Below, in pieces: positions 484 to 11,347 of a stretch of DNA of 11,347 nt (within the stretch, counting starts at the first letter, position 1; each line of letters opens with the position of its first letter). The notes below the pieces were generated by a model, which was given only the letters and a program-made list of their open reading frames with translations, was not told the origin of the DNA and did no database searches. Position numbers and translations under genes: made by a program. Origin of the DNA: a virus (lineage: Duplodnaviria > Heunggongvirae > Uroviricota > Caudoviricetes); the IMG/VR virus record IMGVR_UViG_2617270980_000009, one strand, 5' to 3'.

Positions 484-2538
484 ATGTCAGACTCCAAGTG
501 GAAAATGCTCTCCGCCATGCCCGGAGAGTTTTCAGTCAAGGTTGCCGGTGGCACGGTGGCATTTATTGAAAGCCCTTTCCGCCCTTCGGGTAATAAAGGG
601 GGGATCACCTTCGCAGACTGCGTGATCCGCTTCAGCACGAAAGAGCCATTATGGGTAATGCCGGTATCCGGTAATCCCAGTGCAGAAATCACCAGTTCAG
701 GCGTGACTGGCATCATTCCAATCACATCTGACGTGGCCGGAACGCTCACGCCCTCCGACTGGAATGCACCGGATAACGCCGGGCCTTCCGGTAGCACGAA
801 TGGCAGCAGTTCAGAGCCGGAATATTACTTTGTTGTCATTCTCGCGGGTCAGTCAAATGGCATGGCCTACGGCGAGGGGCTGCCGTTACCGGATTCGTTT
901 GACCGCCCGGACCCACGCATTAAGCAACTGGCACGCCGCAGTACGGTAACGCCCAACGGTACGTCGTGTACATACAACGACATCATTCCGGCAGACCACT
1001 GCCTGCATGATGTTCAGGATATGAGCGGGATAAACCACCCGAAAGCTGATCTGGCAAAAGGCCAGTACGGGACTGTCGGTCAGGGGTTGCATATTGCCAA
1101 AAAACTGCTTCCCTATATCCCACAGAATGCGGGGATACTTCTGGTGCCCTGTTGTCGTGGCGGGGCAGCATTCACCACTGGAGCCGACGGCTCATTCAGT
1201 GAGGCCAGCGGTGCTTCCGCTGATTCTTCACGCTGGGGGGCCGGTAAACCTCTGTATCAGGACCTGGTAAGCCGCACCAAAGTCGCGCTGGCGAAAAACC
1301 CGAAAAACAAACTTCTGGCTGTGGTCTGGATGCAGGGAGAGGCAGACCTTGCCTCAGGAAGCCAGCAGCATAATAGTTTATTCACGGCCATGGTTCAGCA
1401 GTTCAGAACTGACCTGGCTCCGCTTGCTGCGCAGTGCGTGAGTGGAAATGCCACCACGGTGCCGTGGATTTGCGGTGATACCACGTATTACTGGAAAAAC
1501 GCTGGCACCGATAAATATGAGGCAGTATACGGTGGCTACAAAGGCAAGGAAGCACAGAAAATTTTCTTTGTACCGTTCCTGACGGATGAGAATGGACAGA
1601 GCACGCCAACGAATGCTCCGGCGGAAGACCCGGATATTGTGGCTGTCGGGTATTACGGTGCAGCATCCCGAACCCAGGGCAGTTTTGTTTCGACACAGCG
1701 TGACAGCCATTTCAGCTCATGGGCACGCAGGGGCGTCATTTCAGACCGTCTGGCCTCAGCTATTATGCTCCATGCAGGGCGCACGGCTGAACTGATGCGC
1801 GGGCAGACCGTGACACCACCGGATGAGAAGCCGTCACCTGATACACCATCAAAACCGTCCACGCCACCCGCAGACACCACGACGATGAGTACGCTATTTG
1901 CTTACCGGGCATCTGAGTCTGAAGGACGGTTGACACCACAGGGTTGGGCTGCCGGAGGTGGCAAGGCTCAAATCGTGGATGATGCCGGAGCTAGCGGGGG
2001 TAAGGCAATGAAACTGACCAAGGAAACAGGAAGAGCCCCCTGGTACCTTGAGCATGATGCTGGTAATGGTGCGGACCTGCTGGGTAAAGGTGGTCTTGTC
2101 AGTTGTCGTTTTAAACTCGATGGCGCGCTTACGGCTAATCAGTATGCACTGGCGCTGTACTGGCCGGTTTCTGCCCTGCCGCAAGGGGTTACTCTGGAAG
2201 GAAATGCCGGTCATAACCTGCTGGCATCGTTCTACGTACAGAGCGATGCCACAGACCTTAACGTGATGTATCACAAAGGAAACACGGCGCAGAACACGAA
2301 GCTGGGGTCATTCGGCGCATTTAATAACGAATGGCATACGCTGGGCTTCCGTTTTGCCGGTAACAACAGTATTGAGGTGACGCCGGTCATTGATGGTAAG
2401 GACGGGACACCATTCATGCTGTCGCAGTCTCCGGTCGGCACGTTTACGGCAGACAAGTTGCGCGTGACCGATATCACTAAAAATGCGACTTACCCGGTAC
2501 TGATTGACAGTATCGTGGTGGAAGTGAATAACGCGTAA
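484..2538 (+). CDS. SGNH/DUF303-family esterase, prophage NanS-p-like sialate (9-O-acetyl) O-acetylesterase, with a Pro/Thr-rich linker and a C-terminal ~230-aa beta-rich (lectin-like?) domain
   Basis: 684-aa ORF. A stop in the same frame at 448-450 makes the ATG at 484 the first available start; a weak SD (cagg/gaaaag) lies upstream. It carries a GQSN esterase motif (VVILAGQSNGMAYGEG) and downstream LLAVVWMQGEAD, typical of the sialate O-acetylesterase (SASA/DUF303) family. Linker TPPDEKPSPDTPSKPSTPPADTTT sits at about aa 440-465. The family assignment is from recall, not a search. Confidence 0.6.
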   Translation: MSDSKWKMLSAMPGEFSVKVAGGTVAFIESPFRPSGNKGGITFADCVIRFSTKEPLWVMPVSGNPSAEITSSGVTGIIPITSDVAGTLTPSDWNAPDNAGPSGSTNGSSSEPEYYFVVILAGQSNGMAYGEGLPLPDSFDRPDPRIKQLARRSTVTPNGTSCTYNDIIPADHCLHDVQDMSGINHPKADLAKGQYGTVGQGLHIAKKLLPYIPQNAGILLVPCCRGGAAFTTGADGSFSEASGASADSSRWGAGKPLYQDLVSRTKVALAKNPKNKLLAVVWMQGEADLASGSQQHNSLFTAMVQQFRTDLAPLAAQCVSGNATTVPWICGDTTYYWKNAGTDKYEAVYGGYKGKEAQKIFFVPFLTDENGQSTPTNAPAEDPDIVAVGYYGAASRTQGSFVSTQRDSHFSSWARRGVISDRLASAIMLHAGRTAELMRGQTVTPPDEKPSPDTPSKPSTPPADTTTMSTLFAYRASESEGRLTPQGWAAGGGKAQIVDDAGASGGKAMKLTKETGRAPWYLEHDAGNGADLLGKGGLVSCRFKLDGALTANQYALALYWPVSALPQGVTLEGNAGHNLLASFYVQSDATDLNVMYHKGNTAQNTKLGSFGAFNNEWHTLGFRFAGNNSIEVTPVIDGKDGTPFMLSQSPVGTFTADKLRVTDITKNATYPVLIDSIVVEVNNA

Positions 2539-2553
2539 GCAGGATAAAAAAAT

Positions 2554-2588
2554 CCCGCCGGTCAAAGAGCCATTTGTTGACTGGCGGG
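2554..2588. terminator. Hairpin (12-bp stem with one G-U pair, 11-nt loop) immediately 3' of the esterase gene; the T-tract is on the minus-strand side
   Basis: cccgccggtcaa (2554-2565) pairs with ttgactggcggg (2577-2588). On the plus strand it is preceded by aaaaaaa (2546-2552) and followed by non-U-rich sequence, so as an intrinsic terminator it reads better for leftward (minus-strand) transcription. Confidence 0.35.
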
Positions 2589-2703
2589 GGATATTCCAAA
2601 CCCATTAAGGAAAGCTACAACCTCTGACAAAGAAGACCATTATGTACGCGGTTACTTTTTAGCTGAAAACTGTTTCTGTAGTCAATATCAAAGGTAAGGT
2701 TAT

Positions 2704-2886
2704 ATGACATTTGTTCATACGATGCTGCTTTATTTCTGCACTGTGGTCAGTGCGTTATATCTGGTGAGCGGTGGTTATAAGGCCATCAGAAATTATGTTC
2801 GCCGCAAAATTGATGACGCAGCAGCTGAAAAGCTCAGTAAAACAGCGCAGGCAACTCCGCTCCCAAAAGACCCGACCCAGCCCTGA
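2704..2886 (+). CDS. Hypothetical small protein (60 aa) with one N-terminal hydrophobic helix and a charged Pro-rich tail
   Basis: ATG at 2704 preceded by aaggtaaggt (2691-2700). N-terminal MLLYFCTVVSALYLVSGG is hydrophobic. No family recognised. Confidence 0.45.
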   Translation: MTFVHTMLLYFCTVVSALYLVSGGYKAIRNYVRRKIDDAAAEKLSKTAQATPLPKDPTQP

Positions 2887-2921
2887 TTGCAGGGCTGTAT
2901 TCCCACATAAGGAGGATATAC

Positions 2922-3176
2922 ATGCCAGAGATTAAAGGCACCGTCACTGAAGTCCTGGTAAAACAGGCACTGTATTCCGGTGAAGTAAATAAATTACTGA
3001 AAGCGCAGGTCCGCAAGGATTTTGAGGCACAAATCGACACTTACGTTGATGAAGTGCTGGCAAAACTTATTGGGCCAGCAGTTGCGGCCAGTGATGCTGA
3101 TAATGAGCCGAAAACCGACGCGCAGCCAGAGCAACCAGACCCGGCTCAGCCCGGAACTGACAGTACCATGATGTAA
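2922..3176 (+). CDS. Hypothetical acidic protein (84 aa) with a Pro/Gln/Asp-rich C-terminus
   Basis: Consensus SD aaggagg (2909-2915) sits 6 nt upstream of ATG 2922. Followed by a short palindrome aaaccgg...ccggttt (3184-3208). No family recognised. Confidence 0.5.
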   Translation: MPEIKGTVTEVLVKQALYSGEVNKLLKAQVRKDFEAQIDTYVDEVLAKLIGPAVAASDADNEPKTDAQPEQPDPAQPGTDSTMM

Positions 3177-3343
3177 CAATACAAACCGGTGGTGTCCTCT
3201 GCCGGTTTGACACTAATGAAAACATCTTTGCCGCTATCCAGCCATATGTAATCGCTGGATAGTATTTCGTATTCAGAAATATAGCTGCTTATGGAGCAGT
3301 CAATCCTGCTTCCCCATCCGGGCAGGCAAATGAACCGGTATCA

Positions 3344-3637
3344 TTAGTCCGATTCACGCTTTTGTAGAATCGTTCCCAGAATGCTATACAGCTCATTAGC
3401 CTGTTGCTCCATCATTGAGACGGAGGCTATACGGTGCAAAGTGATTTCAGGAGGTGGCACACCTCCATCTTCTTGCTGTGGAGGAAAAACATAAGATTTA
3501 ATAAAAAAGTTGAAGCATATGAACTCTCCCGCACTCGAACTGTATTTGCAGGCATCTGAATAATCGGAAAAATAATCATTATAGATTTCCGCATTTTCAA
3601 TCATTTTTCGATTTCTCGTCGTTACATGATTGTCCAT
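3344..3637 (-). CDS. Hypothetical protein (97 aa) in an AT-rich island, transcribed divergently from the com/mom-like pair
   Basis: Minus-strand ORF with SD aagagg (reverse complement of 3643-3648) 5 nt upstream of its ATG (3637-3635). Codon usage is AT-rich and unlike the flanking lambdoid genes. No family recognised. Confidence 0.5.
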   Translation of the reverse strand: MDNHVTTRNRKMIENAEIYNDYFSDYSDACKYSSSAGEFICFNFFIKSYVFPPQQEDGGVPPPEITLHRIASVSMMEQQANELYSILGTILQKRESD

Positions 3638-3760
3638 AGCAGCCTCTTACGCTGGCAATTAACCAATTGACTTCTATAAATTAGTTGATTTGTTTGCTTT
3701 GCGGTATTCAAATGTACAATCATTCAGCACTTATGCGTTACAGCACCGTTTAAAATTAGT

Positions 3761-3850
3761 GATCAAACTCATAAATTTTCGCTAATGACATTTCGTGTTA
3801 TTTGTTGTATCAATTAAATAAATCAAATCGATCGTTTTTGTCGATCGATT
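3761..3850. promoter_or_regulatory. Putative regulatory region upstream of com: perfect inverted repeat AATCGATCG-n7-CGATCGATT (3826-3850) and three GATC (Dam) sites at 3761, 3830 and 3843
   Basis: Read directly from the sequence. Both arms contain the palindrome CGATCG. The region lies in the 256-bp AT-rich divergent intergenic space between the 97-aa ORF and com. Confidence 0.4.
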
Positions 3851-3893
3851 GAGTGATAAAGATATCAACAACAAAGCAGGAGGTTATGCGGCC

Positions 3894-4094
3894 ATGTATC
3901 GAAACATACGGTGCCGACATTGTAACAAGCTACTGGCACGAGCCAGCTTCAGTTATCTGGAAGTCAAATGTCCGCGCTGTAAAACCCTCAATCAAATCAC
4001 ATCTCAGAGCGCCACAGAGCACCCCACATACACAAGGAAATCCTGTCGTGGGGAACAGAAAGCAAGTTACATCCCGTATCATCAGCACGCCTGA
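3894..4094 (+). CDS. com: Com-like zinc-finger translational activator (phage Mu Com homolog), 66 aa
   Basis: [45 protein letters not shown]... aligns with Mu Com as I recall it (MKSIRCKNCNKLLFKADSFDHIEIRCPRCKRHII...EHPTEK), including the CxxC...CPRC zinc-binding cysteines. SD aggagg (3878-3883) is 10 nt upstream of ATG 3894. The track ORF start at 3849 is rejected because it has no SD. Confidence 0.7.
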
Positions 4095-4785
4095 ACTTAT
4101 TCACTATAACGACAATATCGTCGGTTATGGCTCCCGTGAGTTACGGGTTGAGACAATAAGTTGCTGGCTGGCCCGGCTGGTCGTCGTCAATAAACATTAC
4201 AGCCATCGTTTCGTAAATAATTCCTACCTTCATCTGGGCATATTTTCAGAACGGGAGCTGGTTGGCGTAATGCAATGGGGTTATGCCCTTAATCCAAACA
4301 ATGGTGCACGCGTCGTAACTGGCACGCAGAACCGCGAATATATGGAGCTTAACCGGTTATGGCTGCATGACTGTATGCCGAGAAACTCCGAATCAAGGGC
4401 AATCAGTTACGCGCTCAAACTAATCAGACAACTTTATCCGCAGGTGCAGTGGGTTCAGTCGTTTGCAGATGAGCGTTGTGGCTGTCTTGGTGTCGTGTAC
4501 CAGGCAAGCAATTTTGATTATGTAGGCAGTCATGAAACAACATTCTATGAACTTGATGGCGAGTGGTATCACGAGATTTGCAAGAATGCAATCAAACGAG
4601 GAGGACAGCGAGGTGAACATCTGCGGGCTAATATCGACAGAGCCAGTGTTCATAAATTCCGTCAGTTTCGTTACATCCGGTTTCTGGACAAGAGAGCCAG
4701 AAAACGCCTTAACACAAAGCTATTCAAAGTCCAGCCTTACCCAAAACCACAAACAGTTAAAACTGGTTTGAAAGAGAGTGAATGA
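4048..4785 (+). CDS. mom: Mom-like DNA modification protein (phage Mu Mom homolog, adenine-modifying anti-restriction function); start inferred as GTG 4048, overlapping the 3' end of com
   Basis: Long ORF in frame 1 directly overlapping a Com homolog, as in Mu. There is no in-frame ATG between 3886 and about codon 137, whereas GTG 4048 has an upstream AGGA (4035-4038) and gives ~245 aa, close to Mu Mom (~231 aa). Assignment rests mainly on synteny with com and on size; I cannot verify Mom sequence motifs from memory. Confidence 0.55.
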
Positions 4786-5701
4786 ACGCTTAAAAACTCA
4801 TTCTAAAACTCAAAAGAAAAGCGCCGATTTAGTATCAAATAAGTTGCGTATCGGCGTTTTTCAGCGGTATCAAATGAAATGCAAATCGGTATCAAAAAAA
4901 TCGCCGCGCTATAGTATCCGTGAGAACGACGACGGCACGTATGCCATCACCGCCGTGCAGCATGTACCGGAAAAAGAGGCCATCGTGGATAACGGGGCGC
5001 ACTTTGACGGCGACCAGAGCGGCACGGTGAATGGTGTCACGCCGCCAGCGGTGCAGCACCTGACCGCCGAAGTCACCGCAGACAGCGGGGAATATCAGGT
5101 GCTGGCGCGCTGGGACACGCCGAAGGTGGTGAAGGGCGTGAACTTCCTGCTCCGTCTGACCGTAACAGCGGATGACGGCAGTGAGCGGCTGGTCAGCACG
5201 GCCCGGACGACGGAAACCACATACCGCTTCAGGCAACTGGCGCTGGGGCGTTACACGCTGACGGTCCGGGCGGTAAATGTGTGGGGACAGCAGGGCGATC
5301 CGGCGTCGGTATCGTTCCGGATTGCCGCCCCGGCAGCGCCGTCGCGGATTGAGCTGACGCCGGGCTATTTTCAGATAACTGCCACGCCGCATCTTGCGGT
5401 TTATGATCCGACGGTACAGTTTGAGTTCTGGTTCTCGGAAACGCGGATTACCGATATCAGGCAGGTTGAAACCACAGCCCGCTACCTTGGCACGGGACTG
5501 TACTGGATAGCCGCCAGTATCAATATCAAACCGGGCCATGATTATTATTTTTACGTTCGCAGTGTGAACACCGTTGGCAAATCGGCATTCGTGGAGGCCG
5601 TCGGTCAGCCGAGTGATGATGCAGAAGGCTACCTGGATTTTTTCAAAGGCAAGATACCGAATCCCATCTCGGTAAAGAGCTGCTGGAAAAAGTTGATCTG
5701 A
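4778..5701 (+). pseudogene. J: Lambda J-like host specificity (central tail fibre) gene, internal fragment: 5'-truncated remnant (J homology starts near 4907) ending at a frameshift
   Basis: From about codon 44 the translation ([35 protein letters not shown]...YLDFFKGK) matches the C-terminal third of lambda J as I recall it. The first ~43 codons are AT-rich junction sequence. A 1-nt loss near 5654-5657 (ata-ccg where a functional gene would read ata-acc-gaa) shifts the frame and gives a premature stop at 5699-5701. Confidence 0.8.
4821..4861 (+). terminator. Possible rho-independent terminator after the mom-like gene
   Basis: gcgccgat (4821-4828) pairs with atcggcg (4850-4856), followed by ttttt (4857-4861). 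The 21-nt loop is long, so confidence is low. Confidence 0.35.
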
Positions 5702-5802
5702 CGGAGGATAACGCCAGCAGACTGGATGAGTTCTCAAAAGACTGGAAGGACGCGAACGATACAGAAAGTTCAGGTTGATACAAATAATAACCTGAACAGC
5801 AT

Positions 5803-6630
5803 GTGGGCTGTGAAGCTGAGCAGACCAAAGACGGAAAACATTATATTGCGGGTATCGGTGCCGGTATTGAGAACACCCCCGACGGCATGCAGAGTCAGGT
5901 GCTGCTGGCGGCAGACAGGATTGCGATGATTAATCCTGCGAATGGCAACACAAAGCCGATGTTTGTTGGTCAGGGCGATCAGATATTCATGAACGACGTG
6001 TTCCTGAAGCGCCTGACAGCCCCCACCATTACCAGCGGTGGCAGTCCTCCGGTATTTTCCCTGACACCAGACGGGCGACTGACGGCGAAAAATGCGGATA
6101 TCAGTGGCAGTGTGAATGCGAACGCCGGGACGCTAAACAACGTCACGATAAATGAGAACTGTACGATTAAGGGCATGCTGGAGGCGACCCAGGTCAGAGG
6201 CGATTTCGTTAAAACAGTATCCAAATCATTCCCGAAGAAGGCTGGTACGTGGGGTAACACGGAAACACCAAACGGGACGGTTACAGTCACTATCAGCGAT
6301 GATCATAACTTTGACCGTCAAATCATTATTCCGCCCATTATTTTTAACGGTGTGGCGTATGACGATCCTGGGAGCGGAAATAACCCCGGAGGCACGAGAT
6401 ACACAGGTTATGGTTTTGAAGTTCGCAAAAACGGCGTATTAATCGCATCCAGAGAAACTAAAGGGGCCATTCCCGGTAGTTACAGTGCAGTTATTGATAT
6501 GCCTAGTGGTGGTGGAAGCGTCACTCTGGAGTTTAAGATTTTCCAGAAAGGCAATCAGGGGGCAGGCAATATCACCGACTGTACGGTGATTGTGACCAAA
6601 AAGGCTGCTTCCGGCATCAGTATTCGTTGA
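5803..6630 (+). pseudogene. J: Lambda J-like host specificity gene, C-terminal receptor-binding portion, separated from the upstream fragment by frameshifts
   Basis: Translation [14 protein letters not shown]...[37 protein letters not shown]...GISIR matches the lambda J C-terminus from memory. J-like coding between 5659 and 5820 continues in other frames: [34 protein letters not shown] in frame 1 up to the stop at 5776-5778, then [18 protein letters not shown] in frame 2. Confidence 0.8.
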
Positions 6631-6700: not shown

Positions 6701-7300
6701 ATGCGTAAACTTTATGCCGCCATTTTGTCCGCAGCCATTTGTCTGGCCGTATCCGGTGCGCCTGCATGGGCATCTGAACATCAGTCCACGCTGAGCGCGG
6801 GGTATCTTCATGCCTCGACGAACGTTCCCGGCAGCGATGATCTTAACGGGATTAACGTGAAATACCGTTATGAGTTTACGGACACACTGGGGCTGGTGAC
6901 GTCATTCAGCTATGCAGGAGACAAGAATCGCCAGCTTACCCGTTACAGCGATACCCGCTGGCATGAAGATTCCGTGCGTAACCGCTGGTTCAGCGTGATG
7001 GTGGGGCCGTCTGTGCGCGTGAATGAATGGTTCAGCGCGTATGCGATGGCGGGTATGGCTTACAGCCGTGTGTCGACTTTCTCCGGGGATTATCTCCGCG
7101 TAACTGACAACAAGGGGAAAACGCACGACGTGCTGACCGGAAGTGATGACGGTCGCCACAGCAACACGTCTCTGGCGTGGGGAGCTGGCGTGCAGTTTAA
7201 CCCGACCGAATCCGTGGCCATTGATATTGCTTATGAAGGCTCCGGCAGTGGCGACTGGCGCACTGACGGTTTCATCGTGGGTGTCGGTTATAAGTTCTGA
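6701..7300 (+). CDS. lom: Lom outer-membrane protein (Ail/OmpX/PagC family beta-barrel), 199 aa with signal peptide
   Basis: Signal peptide [24 protein letters not shown]. Motifs [12 protein letters not shown] and the C-terminal [24 protein letters not shown] match lambda Lom from memory. SD agagg is 5 nt upstream. Position between J and stf is as in lambda. Confidence 0.9.
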
Positions 7301-7364: not shown

Positions 7365-10300
7365 ATGGCAGTAAAGATTTCAGGTGTACTGAAAGACGGC
7401 ACAGGAAAACCGGTACAGAACTGCACAATCCAGCTGAAAGCAAAACGTAACAGCACCGCGGTGGTGGTGAACACGCTGGCCTCAGAAAATCCGGATGAAG
7501 CCGGGCGTTACAGCATGGACGTTGAGTACGGTCAGTACAGCGTTATTCTGTTGGTGGAAGGATTCCCGCCGTCACATGCCGGGACCATCACCGTGTATGA
7601 AGATTCCCGACCCGGTACGCTGAATGATTTTCTCGGTGCCATGACGGAGGATGATGCCCGTCCGGAGGCTCTGCGCCGTTTTGAACTGATGGTGGAAGAG
7701 GTGGCGCGTAACGCGTCCGCGGTGGCACAGAACACGGCAGCCGCGAAGAAGTCAGCCGGCGATGCCGGCACATCTGCCCGTGAGGCGGCAACCCATGCGA
7801 CTGATGCTGCAGGCTCAGCACGCGCAGCCAGCACGTCAGCCGGACAGGCCGCTTCGTCGGCTCAGTCAGCGTCTTCCAGCGCAGGAACGGCATCAACAAA
7901 GGCCACTGAAGCGGAAAAAAGTGCTGCCGCTGCAGAGTCCTCAAAAAGCGCGGCAGCTACCAGTGCCAGTGCCGCGAAAACGTCAGAAACGAATGCTGCA
8001 GCGTCACAACAATCAGCAGCCACTTCTGCATCCACCGCGACTACGAAAGCGTCAGAAGCTGCCACCTCAGCCCGGGATGCGTCGGCTTCAAAAGAGGCGG
8101 CAAAATCATCAGAAACGAACGCATCCTCGAGCGCCAGTAGCGCAGCTTCCTCGGCAACGGCGGCAGCAAATTCCGCGAAGGCGGCAAAAACGTCCGAGAC
8201 GAACGCCAGGTCTTCTGAGACGGCAGCGGGACAGAGCGCCTCAGCTGCGGCAGGCTCAAAAACAGCGGCTGCGTCGTCTGCCAGTGCCGCGTCAACAAGT
8301 GCCGGGCAGGCCTCAGCCAGTGCCATCGCCGCCGGAAAATCGGCAGAAAGCGCCGCATCATCCGCTTCAACAGCCACAACGAAGGCTGGCGAAGCCACTG
8401 AACAGGCCAGCGCAGCAGCGAGGTCTGCTTCCGCAGCGAAGACATCCGAAACGAACGCGAAAGCGTCGGAAACCAGCGCAGAATCCTCAAAAACGGCAGC
8501 CGCATCGTCCGCCAGTTCGGCAGCGTCATCGGCATCATCTGCGTCTGCTTCAAAAGATGAGGCGACCAGACAGGCGTCAGCAGCGAAGGGCAGCGCCACG
8601 ACGGCATCCACGAAAGCAACAGAGGCGGCAGGCAGTGCGACGGCTGCATCTCAGAGCAAAACTGCTGCCGAATCTGCTGCGACTCGTGCAGAAGCTGCCG
8701 CTGATCGTGCTGAAGAGATTGCCGGTGCAGTTGCGATGGAAGACGCAAGCCTTACAACTAAAGGTGTTGTGAAACTTAGCAGTGCTGTCGATAGCACCAG
8801 TGAATCTTTAGCCGCGACACCAAAAGCAGTTAAGACCGCATATGATAATGCTGAAAAACGACTACAGAAGGATCAGAATGGTGCTGATATCCCCGACAAG
8901 GGCCGCTTCCTGAATAACATTAATGTTTACAGCAAAGGTGAAGTGGATCAGAAAAAGGGGATGCGATACGTTGTGGTAAATGCCCCGGCGGGTGTCCAGG
9001 AAGGTAAATATTATCCGTTAGTGATAAAAAGGAATGACAGCCATCGGGCATCCCGCGTTGTCATTTCAACGCCAAGTCGCACAGCTAATCACAGAATGAA
9101 TAACTGTGAGTTTAATGGTTTTGTTTGCGCAGGCGGCTGGACGGACCGGGGTAGCTATGCCTGTGGTATGTTCTGGGCTTATTCATCATCGGAACGCGCT
9201 ATTCATTCCATTCTGATGAGTAATAAAGGCGATACCGTAGACAGCGTATTCTATATAGAAGGTGGGGCATTTCCCGTAGAGGTCTTTTTAGAAGAAGGAC
9301 TTTCTGTTACTGCTCCTGCTTCTGATTATGTTGTTGCTGAAACGACTTATAAATTTGGCGCAACTGATCCTTATTCTGAATCAGTTGCGGTAAATTTAAT
9401 TTTAGATTTTAAACAAGGTAATGGATTTTATAGTTCGTATCCTGTTTTGAGTAAGTCAGACATTAGCGGTAATAAGGTTTACGCTAATGATGAAGTTATT
9501 GTCCGTAGTCAGAATGCGTTAAGGATGATTGCTGGCGATTACGGTGTCATATGGCGAAATGATGGAGCAAATACTTACTTGCTCATGACTGATAAAGGCG
9601 ACCAGTACGGTGGCTGGAACGGTCTTCGACCATTTGCAGTAAATAACGCAACAGGTGAAGTGACGATCAATACACCACTTAATTCTCCAAAAGGGGTTAA
9701 GGGGAACTCTGATACAGCTACGAAACTTCAGACTGCAAGAAAAATATCCGGTGTTCCATTTGATGGCTCTACTGATATCACTTTAACCGCCGCGCATGTT
9801 GCCGCTTTCGCAAGAAGAGCAACAGGGTCATATGCTGATGCTGATGGCGGCGTGCCGTGGAATGCTGAATCTGGTGCTTATAATGTAACTAGAACGGGCG
9901 ACAGCTATATTCTGGTTAACTTCTATACCGGAGTCGGAAGTTGCCGGACCTTGCAGATGAAGGCGCATTACAGAAATGGTGGTCTGTTCTACCGTTCTTC
10001 AAGAGACGGTTATGGTTTTGAGGAAGACTGGGCAGAAGTTTATACCTCGAAAAATCTTCCACCAGAAAGCTACCCAGTCGGCGCACCAATCCCGTGGCCA
10101 TCAGATACCGTTCCGTCTGGTTATGCTCTGATGCAGGGGCAGACTTTTGACAAATCTGCCTACCCGAAACTTGCAGCCGCTTATCCGTCAGGCGTGATCC
10201 CTGATATGCGTGGCTGGACGATTAAGGGCAAGCCCGCCAGTGGTCGTGCCGTATTGTCTCAGGAACAGGACGGCATAAAATCGCATACCCACAGCGCCAG

Positions 10301-10763
10301 CGCATCCAGTACGGATTTGGGGACGAAAACCACATCGTCGTTTGATTACGGAACCAAATCCACGAATAACACCGGGGCGCATACCCATAGTATTAGCGGG
10401 ACCGCAAATAGTGCCGGCGCGCACCAACACAAGAGTTCCGGTGCATTTGGTGGCACGAACACGAGCATTTTCCCTAATGGTTATACCGCGATTTCAAATC
10501 CAAGCGCGGGGATTATGAGCACAACAAGCGGTAGTGGCCAGACTCGTAATGCAGGGAAGACATCATCAGATGGTGCTCATACCCACTCGCTGTCCGGCAC
10601 TGCTGCAAGCGCAGGCGCACATGCACATACTGTCGGTATTGGTGCTCATACGCACTCCGTTGCGATTGGCTCACATGGACACACCATCACCGTTAACGCT
10701 GCGGGTAACGCGGAAAACACCGTCAAAAACATCGCATTTAACTATATTGTGAGGCTTGCATAA
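7365..10763 (+). CDS. stf: Side tail fibre protein Stf (lambda Stf / T4 gp37-like), 1132 aa, mosaic with an extended Ala/Ser-rich repeat region and an inserted low-GC central domain
   Basis: N-terminus [26 protein letters not shown]...[16 protein letters not shown] and C-terminus ...[31 protein letters not shown] match lambda Stf from memory. His-x-His repeats (GAHTHS, GAHAHT, GAHTHS, GSHGHT) are present near the C-terminus. The stop overlaps the tfa start (taATG at 10761-10765). Confidence 0.9.
7730..8700 (+). repeat. Low-complexity, GC-rich Ala/Ser/Thr repeat region inside stf, with recurring AAKTSETNA-type units
   Basis: Motifs such as [20 protein letters not shown] and KTAAASSAS recur in the translation. 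The same repetitive DNA yields long spurious ORFs in other frames and on the minus strand. Confidence 0.6.
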
Positions 10764-11347
10764 TGGCATTCAGAATGAGTGAACAAGCACGGACCATAAA
10801 AATTTATAATCTGCTGGCCGGAACTAATGAATTTATTGGTGAAGGTGACGCATATATTCCGCCTCATACAGGTCTGCCAGCAAACAGTACCGATATTGCA
10901 CCACCAGATATTCCGGCAGGCTTCGTGGCTGTTTTCAACAGTGATGAGGCATCGTGGCATCTCGTTGAAGACCATCGGGGTAAAACGGTTTATGACGTGG
11001 CTTCCGGCGACGCGTTATTTATTTCTGAACTCGGTCCGTTACCGGAAAATGTTACCTGGTTGTCGCCGGGAGGGGAATATCAGAAGTGGAACGGCACAGC
11101 CTGGGTGAATGATACGGAAGCAGAAAAACTGTTCCGGATCCGGGAGGCAGAAGAAACAAAAAACAGCCTGATGCAGGTAGCCAGTGAGCATATTGCGCCA
11201 CTTCAGGATGCTGTAGATCTGGAAATCGCAACGGAGGAAGAAACCTTGTTGCTGGAAGCCTGGAAAAAGTATCGGGTGTTGCTGAACCGTGTTAATACAA
11301 CAACTGCACCGGATATTGAATGGCCAACAGTACCCATTATCGAATAG
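10763..11347 (+). CDS. tfa: Tail fibre assembly chaperone Tfa, 194 aa; the stop codon is the last three bases of the window
   Basis: [79 protein letters not shown]... is near-identical to lambda Tfa as I recall it. Translationally coupled to stf. Confidence 0.9.

Follow-up and report, generated by a model that had tools for sequence, protein, structure and literature searches.

Mosaic tail fibres shared among unrelated phages have been a textbook case since about 1990, and the His-x-His (HxH) iron sites of gp37-type fibre tips became known with the 2XGF structure. The side tail fibre (Stf) of lambda uses OmpC as its receptor, and T4 gp34 is a myovirus proximal half-fibre protein that lacks a receptor role. 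In lambda Stf, the role of the N-terminal collar domain and the positions of the hinge and distal coiled coil have been described (PMC12617516), and functional chimeras have been engineered at the junctions R393 and S528 (PMC11338833). The T4 gp37 needle carries seven coordinated irons along its length, H929/H931 being iron-binding residues, and the tip residues 933–949 are needed for function and form the experimentally mapped receptor contact (PMC6957217). In experiments, lambda also takes up stf and tfa DNA of Rac and Qin through homologous recombination (PMC3945230).

The window analysed here, an 11,347-nt stretch of Caudoviricetes DNA, carries on its plus strand a side tail fibre gene, stf (7365–10763), which starts with ATG and, as read from the open reading frame list and its translation, encodes a 1132-aa protein of the long StfR-type form. 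Among E. coli prophage side tail fibre genes it belongs to the K-12 StfR type and is both ordinary and already catalogued, the exact product being present in NCBI as WP_072002740.1 and on several database contigs. The K-12 Rac StfR (b1372, NP_415890.2, 1120 aa) is collinear with it over the full length, aligning in a single HSP with 83% identity over 1135 columns, and shares its domain order, its lom–stf–tfa context and its seven HxH motifs. Phages Turner (PP925837), PhiR30_1 (PV340558) and ev099 likewise give collinear full-length alignments, and the central block is, by these alignments, no peculiarity of the window's gene. A single known Stf thus spans the whole of what the initial annotation had described as a mosaic gene with an inserted central domain, although the composition along the gene is not uniform. 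The gene represents textbook tail-fibre mosaicism on the architecture of K-12 StfR, and in this respect it is already known.

Within the window the genes are arranged as a J remnant (4778–6630), lom (6701–7300), stf and tfa (10763–11347, plus strand), and the order J–lom–stf–tfa is common to the window, lambda, Rac, Turner and H10407. The tfa gene encodes a 194-aa tail fibre assembly chaperone (Pfam PF02413, Caudo_TAP, E = 2e-42) that is 94% identical to lambda Tfa; the stf stop and the tfa start overlap in TAATG, placing the chaperone gene directly downstream of the fibre gene. The J remnant is truncated at its 5′ end and lacks the N-terminus, and a frameshift that lies between 5701 and 5803 breaks it in two. 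Together with an esterase and com/mom, it forms a left flank that matches a Qin-like defective element.

Pfam families matched in the window comprise PF08400, PF21446, PF07484, PF03335 and PF12604, and PDB sequence matches of the stf product fall on the Ur-lambda Stf N-terminus, a Mu/P1-type S fibre, T4 gp34 and the T4 gp37 tip (2XGF). An NCBIfam search with the whole protein returned no match, and neither aa 500–700 nor the Ala/Ser region drew a Pfam match at E ≤ 1. On its sequence, the product is very probably a trimeric lambdoid fibre of the long StfR type, built as a patchwork of cassettes and ending in a gp37-type tip, in which trimer formation, metal binding and the receptor are all assigned by homology.

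Comparison by blastp with the reconstructed 774-aa Ur-lambda Stf bears out the lambda-like ends that had been noted for the 1132-aa protein. Specifically, identity is 81% over aa 1–352, which cover the N-terminal collar domain and the proximal coiled coil, and 69% between aa 903–1132, the gp37-like C-terminus, and lambda residues 530–774. Between these ends, lambda residues 336–398 match aa 441–503 at 59% identity, and the match stops at about aa 500; an apparent extension of the similarity to aa 526 arises in blastp without composition correction and was discarded, as homology ends at about aa 500 once the correction is applied. The region from aa ~500 to 901 (8862–10067, plus strand) is consequently a set of modules without a lambda counterpart, as judged from blastp and the lambda domain map (PMC12617516), and it lies within about 20 nt of the interval 8870–10050 that had been claimed for a domain absent from lambda Stf. 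This set is additional to lambda but is not a pure insertion, because ~400 aa of β-rich modules here stand in place of a different lambda segment of ~130 aa (about aa 399–529), corresponding to the hinge and the distal coiled coil (aa ~394–525; PMC12617516). Both borders of the region map to lambda R393 and S528. Ur-lambda Stf also has eight HxH motifs in all and an additional SFDYGTK repeat, and its tip loop is not the same.

The N-terminal tail-attachment domain occupies aa 1–134 (7365–7766, plus strand; Pfam PF08400, E = 3e-71), and its first 94 residues correspond to the collar domain gpStfN, matching the Ur-lambda Stf N-terminus chains of PDB 9e7m/9mgh with E = 8e-51. It is followed by an Ala/Ser-rich proximal shaft of degenerate repeats (aa ~102–499; 7668–8861, plus strand), which aligns to the lambda proximal coiled coil 102–393, contains repeat families D1–D9 and is longer than that of lambda by ~105 aa of extra Ala/Ser repeats. 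The Ala+Ser fraction reaches 0.6–0.7 over aa 135–450 with GC2 of ~0.8, and the shaft is GC-rich because of its GCN/AGC codons. By analogy with lambda (PMC12617516), this shaft would be in a coiled-coil state.

The central region is built from three modules. An unannotated β-sandwich shaft domain (aa 525–690; 8937–9434, plus strand) belongs to no Pfam family and is also present in an Aeromonas T4-like gp37. Downstream of it, a T4 gp34-like domain (aa 701–786; 9465–9722, plus strand) is identified by PDB 4uxe/5nxf and by Pfam PF21446 (Gp34_trimer, aa 655–758, E = 6e-30); gp34 residues 1035–1115 are 54% identical to aa 702–782, and this is the sole domain that the two proteins have in common. A gp37_C-type domain (aa ~825–890; 9837–10034, plus strand; Pfam PF12604, E = 8e-6; PDB 8ju3 matching aa 812–906) completes the series and shows 98–100% amino-acid identity to its relatives. 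An AF2 monomer model of aa 520–905 gave a pLDDT of 49.5 and was rejected as a basis for fold search; so low a value is to be expected when one chain of an intertwined trimer is modelled alone.

The visibly AT-richer block that had been reported at about 8870–10050 is confirmed, with GC 0.445 and GC3 0.373 against 0.584/0.503 in the 5′ part and 0.530/0.500 in the 3′ part of the gene (chi-square on GC3 counts, p = 4e-5). Within it, 9240–9480 falls to GC 0.361 and GC3 0.20, and a low-GC core (9240–9539, plus strand) inside the exchange cassette termed C below has GC 0.373 and GC3 0.23 (p = 3e-6). Part of the visual GC contrast is due to the 5′ Ala/Ser-rich coiled coil, with its GC2 of ~0.8. A 19-nt hairpin in the AT-rich core is statistically unusual, but it is allele-specific, the K-12 and 9g alleles showing no conservation of it, and it was therefore set aside.

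The C-terminal region adopts the plan of the T4 gp37 tip, PDB 2XGF matching aa 901–1132 with E = 1.7e-83. A tail-collar domain (aa 906–953; 10080–10223, plus strand; Pfam PF07484, E = 8e-12), aligned to the 2XGF collar, leads into a gp37-type needle (aa 974–1106; 10284–10682, plus strand) that carries seven HxH motifs at aa 974, 1006, 1020, 1072, 1086, 1095 and 1104. This number is reached in 0 of 10,000 shuffles (mean 0.37 to 0.79), and all seven motifs align one-to-one with gp37 883/915/929/966/980/989/998, in agreement with the gp37-type HxH motifs named in the initial annotation. The conserved liganding histidines suggest that iron would be coordinated octahedrally at these sites, by six histidines each in the trimer. 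Between motifs 3 and 4 lies a hypervariable tip loop (aa 1023–1071; 10431–10577, plus strand), which aligns with gp37 tip residues 932–965. Collar, needle and tip are homologous between the two proteins, with near-identity over the last 50 residues, whereas the tip loops are unlike in both sequence and length, the similarity farther upstream is weak (23% over aa 650–759 within an alignment of aa 650–1132 to gp37 518–1026) and the N-terminal attachment is entirely different, gp37 joining gp36 rather than a siphovirus tail.

A mosaic scan of differences per 60 nt against K-12, Turner, ev099, H10407 and strain 600029 reveals blocks that switch between ~0% and 25–60% divergence, with partners that differ from block to block. 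Cassette B (aa ~421–519; 8625–8920, plus strand), which spans the end of the coiled coil and a conserved ATPKAVK linker, shows 12–24 differences per 60 nt from K-12, Turner, ev099 and H10407 and none from strain 600029; its dN is 0.11 with saturated dS, and its allele occurs at ≥99% identity in 1 of 5426 genomes. Cassette C (aa ~521–799; 8925–9760, plus strand) is a Turner/H10407-type allele with 0–5 differences per 60 nt from these two and 14–38 from K-12 and ev099, which carry a different allele; here dN is 0.34 (range 0.32–0.37), dS is saturated, and the central-block allele is found in about 157 of the 5426 E. coli genomes. Cassette F (10365–10600, plus strand; variable core 10431–10577) forms the tip, where the loop is identical to those of ev099 and H10407 and differs from K-12 and Turner by 15–44 differences per 60 nt and a 12-aa indel. 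The tip allele is present in 996 and the full-length gene in 140 of 5426 genomes, and dS in the flanks is 0.11. The gene therefore contains at least three exchange cassettes, B, C and F, which have been independently reassorted between near-identical flanks and have each their own distribution.

The relatives combine these cassettes differently. K-12 StfR has other alleles of B and C, with 42–75% amino-acid identity and saturated dS, and a tip loop of 46–63% identity that contains the 12-aa indel. Turner, PhiR30_1 and the ETEC H10407 prophage carry the same central allele at 95–100% nucleotide identity over 8925–9760 and share the length class and context, yet all differ in cassette B; the tip loop of Turner is additionally of the K-12 type, and the Turner Tfa has 191 aa. 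In other homologues the same central domain is joined to P2-type N-termini, other distal domains or S74-chaperone C-termini.

The proposed working of the fibre follows from homology. The N-terminal domain (aa 1–94) would dock the fibre to the tail tip within a surrounding collar, and the Ala/Ser-rich coiled coil, which reaches about aa 500, would form the proximal shaft. The β-sandwich (~525–690), gp34-like (701–786) and gp37_C (~825–890) modules would take the place of the lambda hinge and distal coiled coil and thereby lengthen the distal shaft. In aa 902–1132, the predicted gp37-type collar and needle, each of the three chains would contribute its seven HxH motifs to the coordination of seven metal (iron) ions, and the loop at aa ~1023–1071 between motifs 3 and 4 would be the receptor-contacting tip. 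The downstream Tfa would act as folding chaperone, and the assembled fibre would mediate fast, reversible primary adsorption. The cassettes may have moved by homologous recombination through their conserved flanks, and the low GC3 of cassette C may reflect a long earlier stay of the allele in AT-richer phage genomes rather than a recent event.

The central low-GC block might instead be a horizontally swapped receptor-binding module that sets host range, either as the primary site or as a second, lectin-like site on the shaft, as the initial annotation had proposed. Its strongly diverged alleles are exchanged between otherwise near-identical genes, the β-sandwich at aa 525–690 lacks a Pfam family, and some lambdoid Stf proteins bind LPS sugars, such as Gifsy-1 Stf with core Gal II (PMC12312913). 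The block nevertheless lies upstream of a complete gp37-type collar, needle and tip, the mapped receptor-binding part in T4; a portion of it is homologous to gp34, from a half-fibre without receptor role; and the divergence of the central alleles is spread over the whole domain (saturated dS, dN 0.32–0.37), which indicates old lineages under purifying selection rather than surface-loop hypervariability. A receptor-binding role of the block is accordingly unlikely. What stands of the proposal is a genuinely mosaic gene with a module that lambda Stf lacks, the low-GC core of this module at synonymous sites and the exchange of anciently diverged alleles; the position is that of a shaft, the alignment of the receptor contact falls on aa ~1023–1071, and the AT-rich middle block is probably a swapped shaft module, the putative receptor contact being the hypervariable tip loop as a separate exchange cassette. 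Another reading takes the low GC as a side effect of amino-acid composition or as a chance fluctuation, uninformative on origin; in its favour, Ala/Ser codons largely explain why the 5′ half is so GC-rich, and another part of the window is even lower in GC. Low GC is, however, seen at synonymous positions and is therefore not just amino-acid composition, since GC3 descends to 0.14–0.26 in aa 626–725 against ~0.5 in the flanks. The K-12 allele of the segment is also less AT-rich (GC3 0.34–0.46), and the effect is therefore specific to the window's allele, leaving the composition reading largely refuted and scarcely credible. The lowest-GC stretch of the window itself is at ~3481–3880, with GC of ~0.32.

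A recent and direct acquisition of the block from a virulent, AT-rich T4-like phage would agree with the core GC3 of 0.23, close to the 0.27 of T4 gene 37, with the similarities to gp34 and gp37 described above and with the β-sandwich in the Aeromonas gp37. It is highly improbable, as protein identity to T4 is 23–54% and the allele already resides in about 157 E. coli genomes and in phages Turner and PhiR30_1. Moreover, a sensitive blastn of 8870–10050 against 50,697 phage records returned lambdoid, 9g/JenK1-like, P1 and P2-type phages and, at the 3′ end only, three other Escherichia phage records, but no T-even phage; a recent T-even origin of the low-GC core was rejected on this ground, and no donor of the low-GC allele was identified. 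A different question is whether stf here, as part of a defective prophage, is a relic without function, its only use being as a store of fibre modules on which incoming lambdoid phages can draw. The Qin-like left flank, the frameshifted J remnant without its N-terminus and the experimental uptake of stf/tfa sequences from Rac and Qin by lambda (PMC3945230) speak for it, while the intact 1132-codon frame and tfa, the occurrence of the exact protein on several contigs and the carriage of the same cassette alleles by plaque-forming phages speak against it, making it a tentative reading, possible but not the expected one. It concerns expression in the present host and does not conflict with the identity of the protein: the surrounding prophage is defective, and the stf product may never be built into a virion there.

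The practical value is modest and consists in a clean map of where modules naturally join in a long-form Stf. These natural junctions fall on R393 and S528 of lambda, points at which engineered fibres have already been fused, and the structurally uncharacterised β-sandwich shaft domain can be flagged as a candidate for accessory binding. Site-specific inversion inside stf is not supported, the Gin/Cin/Pin crossover core AAACCNNGGTTT being found nowhere in the window even with 1 mismatch allowed, and no long inverted repeats were found flanking the variable part of the gene. The window ends at the tfa stop; next to tfa, the relatives Rac, Turner and the Qin-like locus carry pinR, pinQ or a DNA invertase.

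The stf gene is a real open reading frame encoding a side tail fibre of 1132 aa at positions 7365–10763 (+), as judged from the ORF list and translation, and sits in the canonical lambdoid order J remnant, lom, stf, tfa. The J remnant lacks its N-terminus and retains the C-terminal part of J in two frames (4778–5701 and 5803–6630) separated by a frameshift, while lom (6701–7300) carries PF06316. The tail fibre assembly gene tfa (10763–11347, PF02413) overlaps the stf stop with its start and encodes a product 94% identical to lambda Tfa.

Relative to the 774-aa Ur-lambda Stf, rebuilt from two frames of lambda PaPa, Stf residues 1–352 are 81% identical and residues 903–1132 match lambda 530–774 at 69% identity, with one further collinear match (Stf 441–503 to lambda 336–398). 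Because the lambda matches end near residue 500 and resume at residue 903, Stf residues ~500–901, the central block at 8862–10067, are without a lambda counterpart, which places the region proposed in the initial annotation (~8870–10050) correctly to about 20 nt. Its edges correspond to lambda R393 and S528, the junctions used for functional lambda Stf chimeras (PMC11338833). The block was described in the initial annotation as inserted; lambda, however, has a 130-aa segment of its own here, a hinge (394–422) plus a distal coiled coil (423–525), with the proximal coiled coil on one side and the gp37-like receptor-binding domain on the other (PMC12617516), so that the block is a replacement. 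The window Stf additionally contains ~105 more residues of Ala/Ser repeats than lambda. Over these repeats lie alternative-frame and antisense ORFs at 7762–8772 (+), 7862–8611 (−) and 8041–8748 (−), of 336, 249 and 235 aa, most likely a side effect of the GCN/AGC richness of the repeats; lambda has a similar case in orf206b, annotated on the opposite strand of this region.

The long form had been implied to be unusual, and it is not. K-12 Rac StfR shares the long architecture and is collinear with it from end to end (83% identity). Of 5426 complete E. coli genomes, 140 contain a full-length match to stf, as do the phage isolates Turner, PhiR30_1, ev099 and mEp332, and NCBI already lists an identical protein, WP_072002740.1. 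All findings on stf fit well-described tail fibre biology. In the NCBI cluster of the 7365–10760 protein, several tail fibre entries are titled 'short-chain fatty acid transporter', and related fragments are titled 'ATP-dependent Clp protease proteolytic subunit 1' and 'phage portal protein' (one each); these names look like annotation errors or source-record fusions.

Along the protein, Pfam assigns the prophage tail fibre N-terminal domain PF08400 to residues 1–134, the T4 gp34 trimerisation domain PF21446 to 655–758, gp37_C (PF12604) to ~825–890, the collar PF07484 to 906–953 and a sub-threshold PF03335 fibre repeat to 1001–1014. PDB sequence searches align residues 1–94 with the Ur-lambda Stf N-terminal collar domain (9e7m/9mgh), 454–521 and 812–906 with S-type fibres (5yvq, 8ju3), 701–786 with T4 gp34, and 901–1132 with the T4 gp37 tip (2XGF, E = 1.7e-83). 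A beta-sandwich shaft domain (residues 525–690) is also found in BFVD within further tail fibres, among them those of JenK1 (60% identity) and Vibrio phage phi 3 and the gp37 of Aeromonas phiAS4. It is followed by a domain with 54% identity to T4 gp34 1035–1115, a conserved 'TATKLQTAR...FDGS' linker, and the gp37_C domain, which is 98–100% conserved among relatives. An accessory binding role for the uncharacterised beta-sandwich is possible but unsupported, and the domain is the one loose end of the analysis.

The proposed gp37-type His-x-His motifs are borne out: seven occur within residues 974–1106, a number reached in 0 of 10,000 shuffles, and they pair one-to-one with gp37 needle histidines H883, H915, H929, H966, H980, H989 and H998. 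The T4 needle holds seven coordinated irons, with H929 and H931 binding iron, and mutational mapping shows that tip residues 933–949 are needed for function (PMC6957217). By alignment, the counterpart of this tip is residues ~1023–1071, the hypervariable part of exchange cassette F. This loop, rather than the central block that had been taken for a receptor-binding module, is probably the primary specificity determinant. It is unlike the tip loops of lambda, T4 gp37 and K-12 StfR. Lambda Stf and T4 gp37 both use OmpC as receptor (PMC12617516); for Gifsy-1 Stf the receptor is a sugar of the LPS core (PMC12312913).

Differences counted per 60 nt against K-12 stfR, Turner, ev099, ETEC H10407 and strain 600029, together with a protein-level profile, confirm that stf is a mosaic, with a different set of closest relatives for each variable block. 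Blocks A (7365–8620), E (9945–10360) and G (10605–10763) are near-identical across all relatives. Block B (8625–8920) is identical only to strain 600029 and diverges by 20–40% from the other four; block C (8925–9760) is near-identical to Turner and H10407 and diverges by 25–60% from K-12 and ev099; block D (9765–9940) diverges moderately from all; and block F (10365–10600) is identical to ev099 and H10407 and diverges strongly from K-12 and Turner, also by a 12-aa indel. Against K-12, dS is 0.11 in A, E and G, saturated in B and C, and 1.5 in F, with dN of 0.11 in B and 0.34 in C; the variable-block alleles are old lineages between young flanks. The central allele is present in 157 and the tip allele in 996 of the 5426 genomes, and the block B allele reaches ≥99% identity in one (next-best ~93%). 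Block B comprises the coiled-coil end and an ATPKAVK linker, and at the protein level it appears to resemble a fragment from Escherichia albertii (P0104).

Homologues in protein databases join the central domain to P2-type N-termini, other distal domains or S74-chaperone C-termini. Sensitive blastn of the central block against 50,697 phage records matches lambdoid, 9g/JenK1-type, P1 and P2-type phages, as well as three other Escherichia phage records at the block's 3' end only. A recent T4-like donor is not supported, since no T-even phage is among these matches. Experimentally, lambda recombines homologously with the Rac and Qin stf-tfa regions (PMC3945230, which also cites earlier work on the exchange of fibres between unrelated phages). 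No invertase crossover site was found in the stf gene.

The central block is AT-richer than its flanks, as initially noted, with GC 0.445 and GC3 0.373 against 0.584/0.503 upstream and 0.530/0.500 downstream in stf; the visual contrast, however, is partly due to the upstream Ala/Ser-rich region, whose GC2 is ~0.8. In its core (9240–9539) GC falls to 0.373 and GC3 to 0.23. Chi-square tests on GC3 counts give p = 4e-5 for the block and p = 3e-6 for the core, so the AT-richness reaches synonymous sites. This core (residues 626–725) runs from the last part of the beta-sandwich into the first part of the gp34-like domain, entirely inside cassette C; in K-12 the allele of this stretch is less AT-rich (GC3 0.34–0.46). 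A 19-nt inverted repeat inside it (9350–9398; 89% complementary, 11-nt loop, RNA fold −22.3 kcal/mol) occurs in the H10407 allele and, with one weakening change, in Turner, but in neither the K-12 nor the 9g allele. The window's lowest GC, below the stf core, lies at 3481–3880 (~0.32), upstream of a Mom-family ORF (3853–4785).

The window's left part, which encodes a 684-aa SASA/DUF6645 esterase (484–2538) and com/mom as well as the J remnant, matches a Qin-like defective prophage, and to judge from 484–6630 stf appears to lie in such an element. The closest complete genome, E. coli 600029, carries a 99.7%-identical stf (L003, 12001–15399) in a fuller lambdoid prophage by ybhB/bioA (bio). Its locus matching the window's left flank at 98% has a different stf of 1024 aa (L009, 10394–13468), with tfaQ and pinQ. 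Because the two matches sit in separate prophages there, the window looks as if it arose when two resident prophages exchanged stf, or else like a combination specific to the strain.
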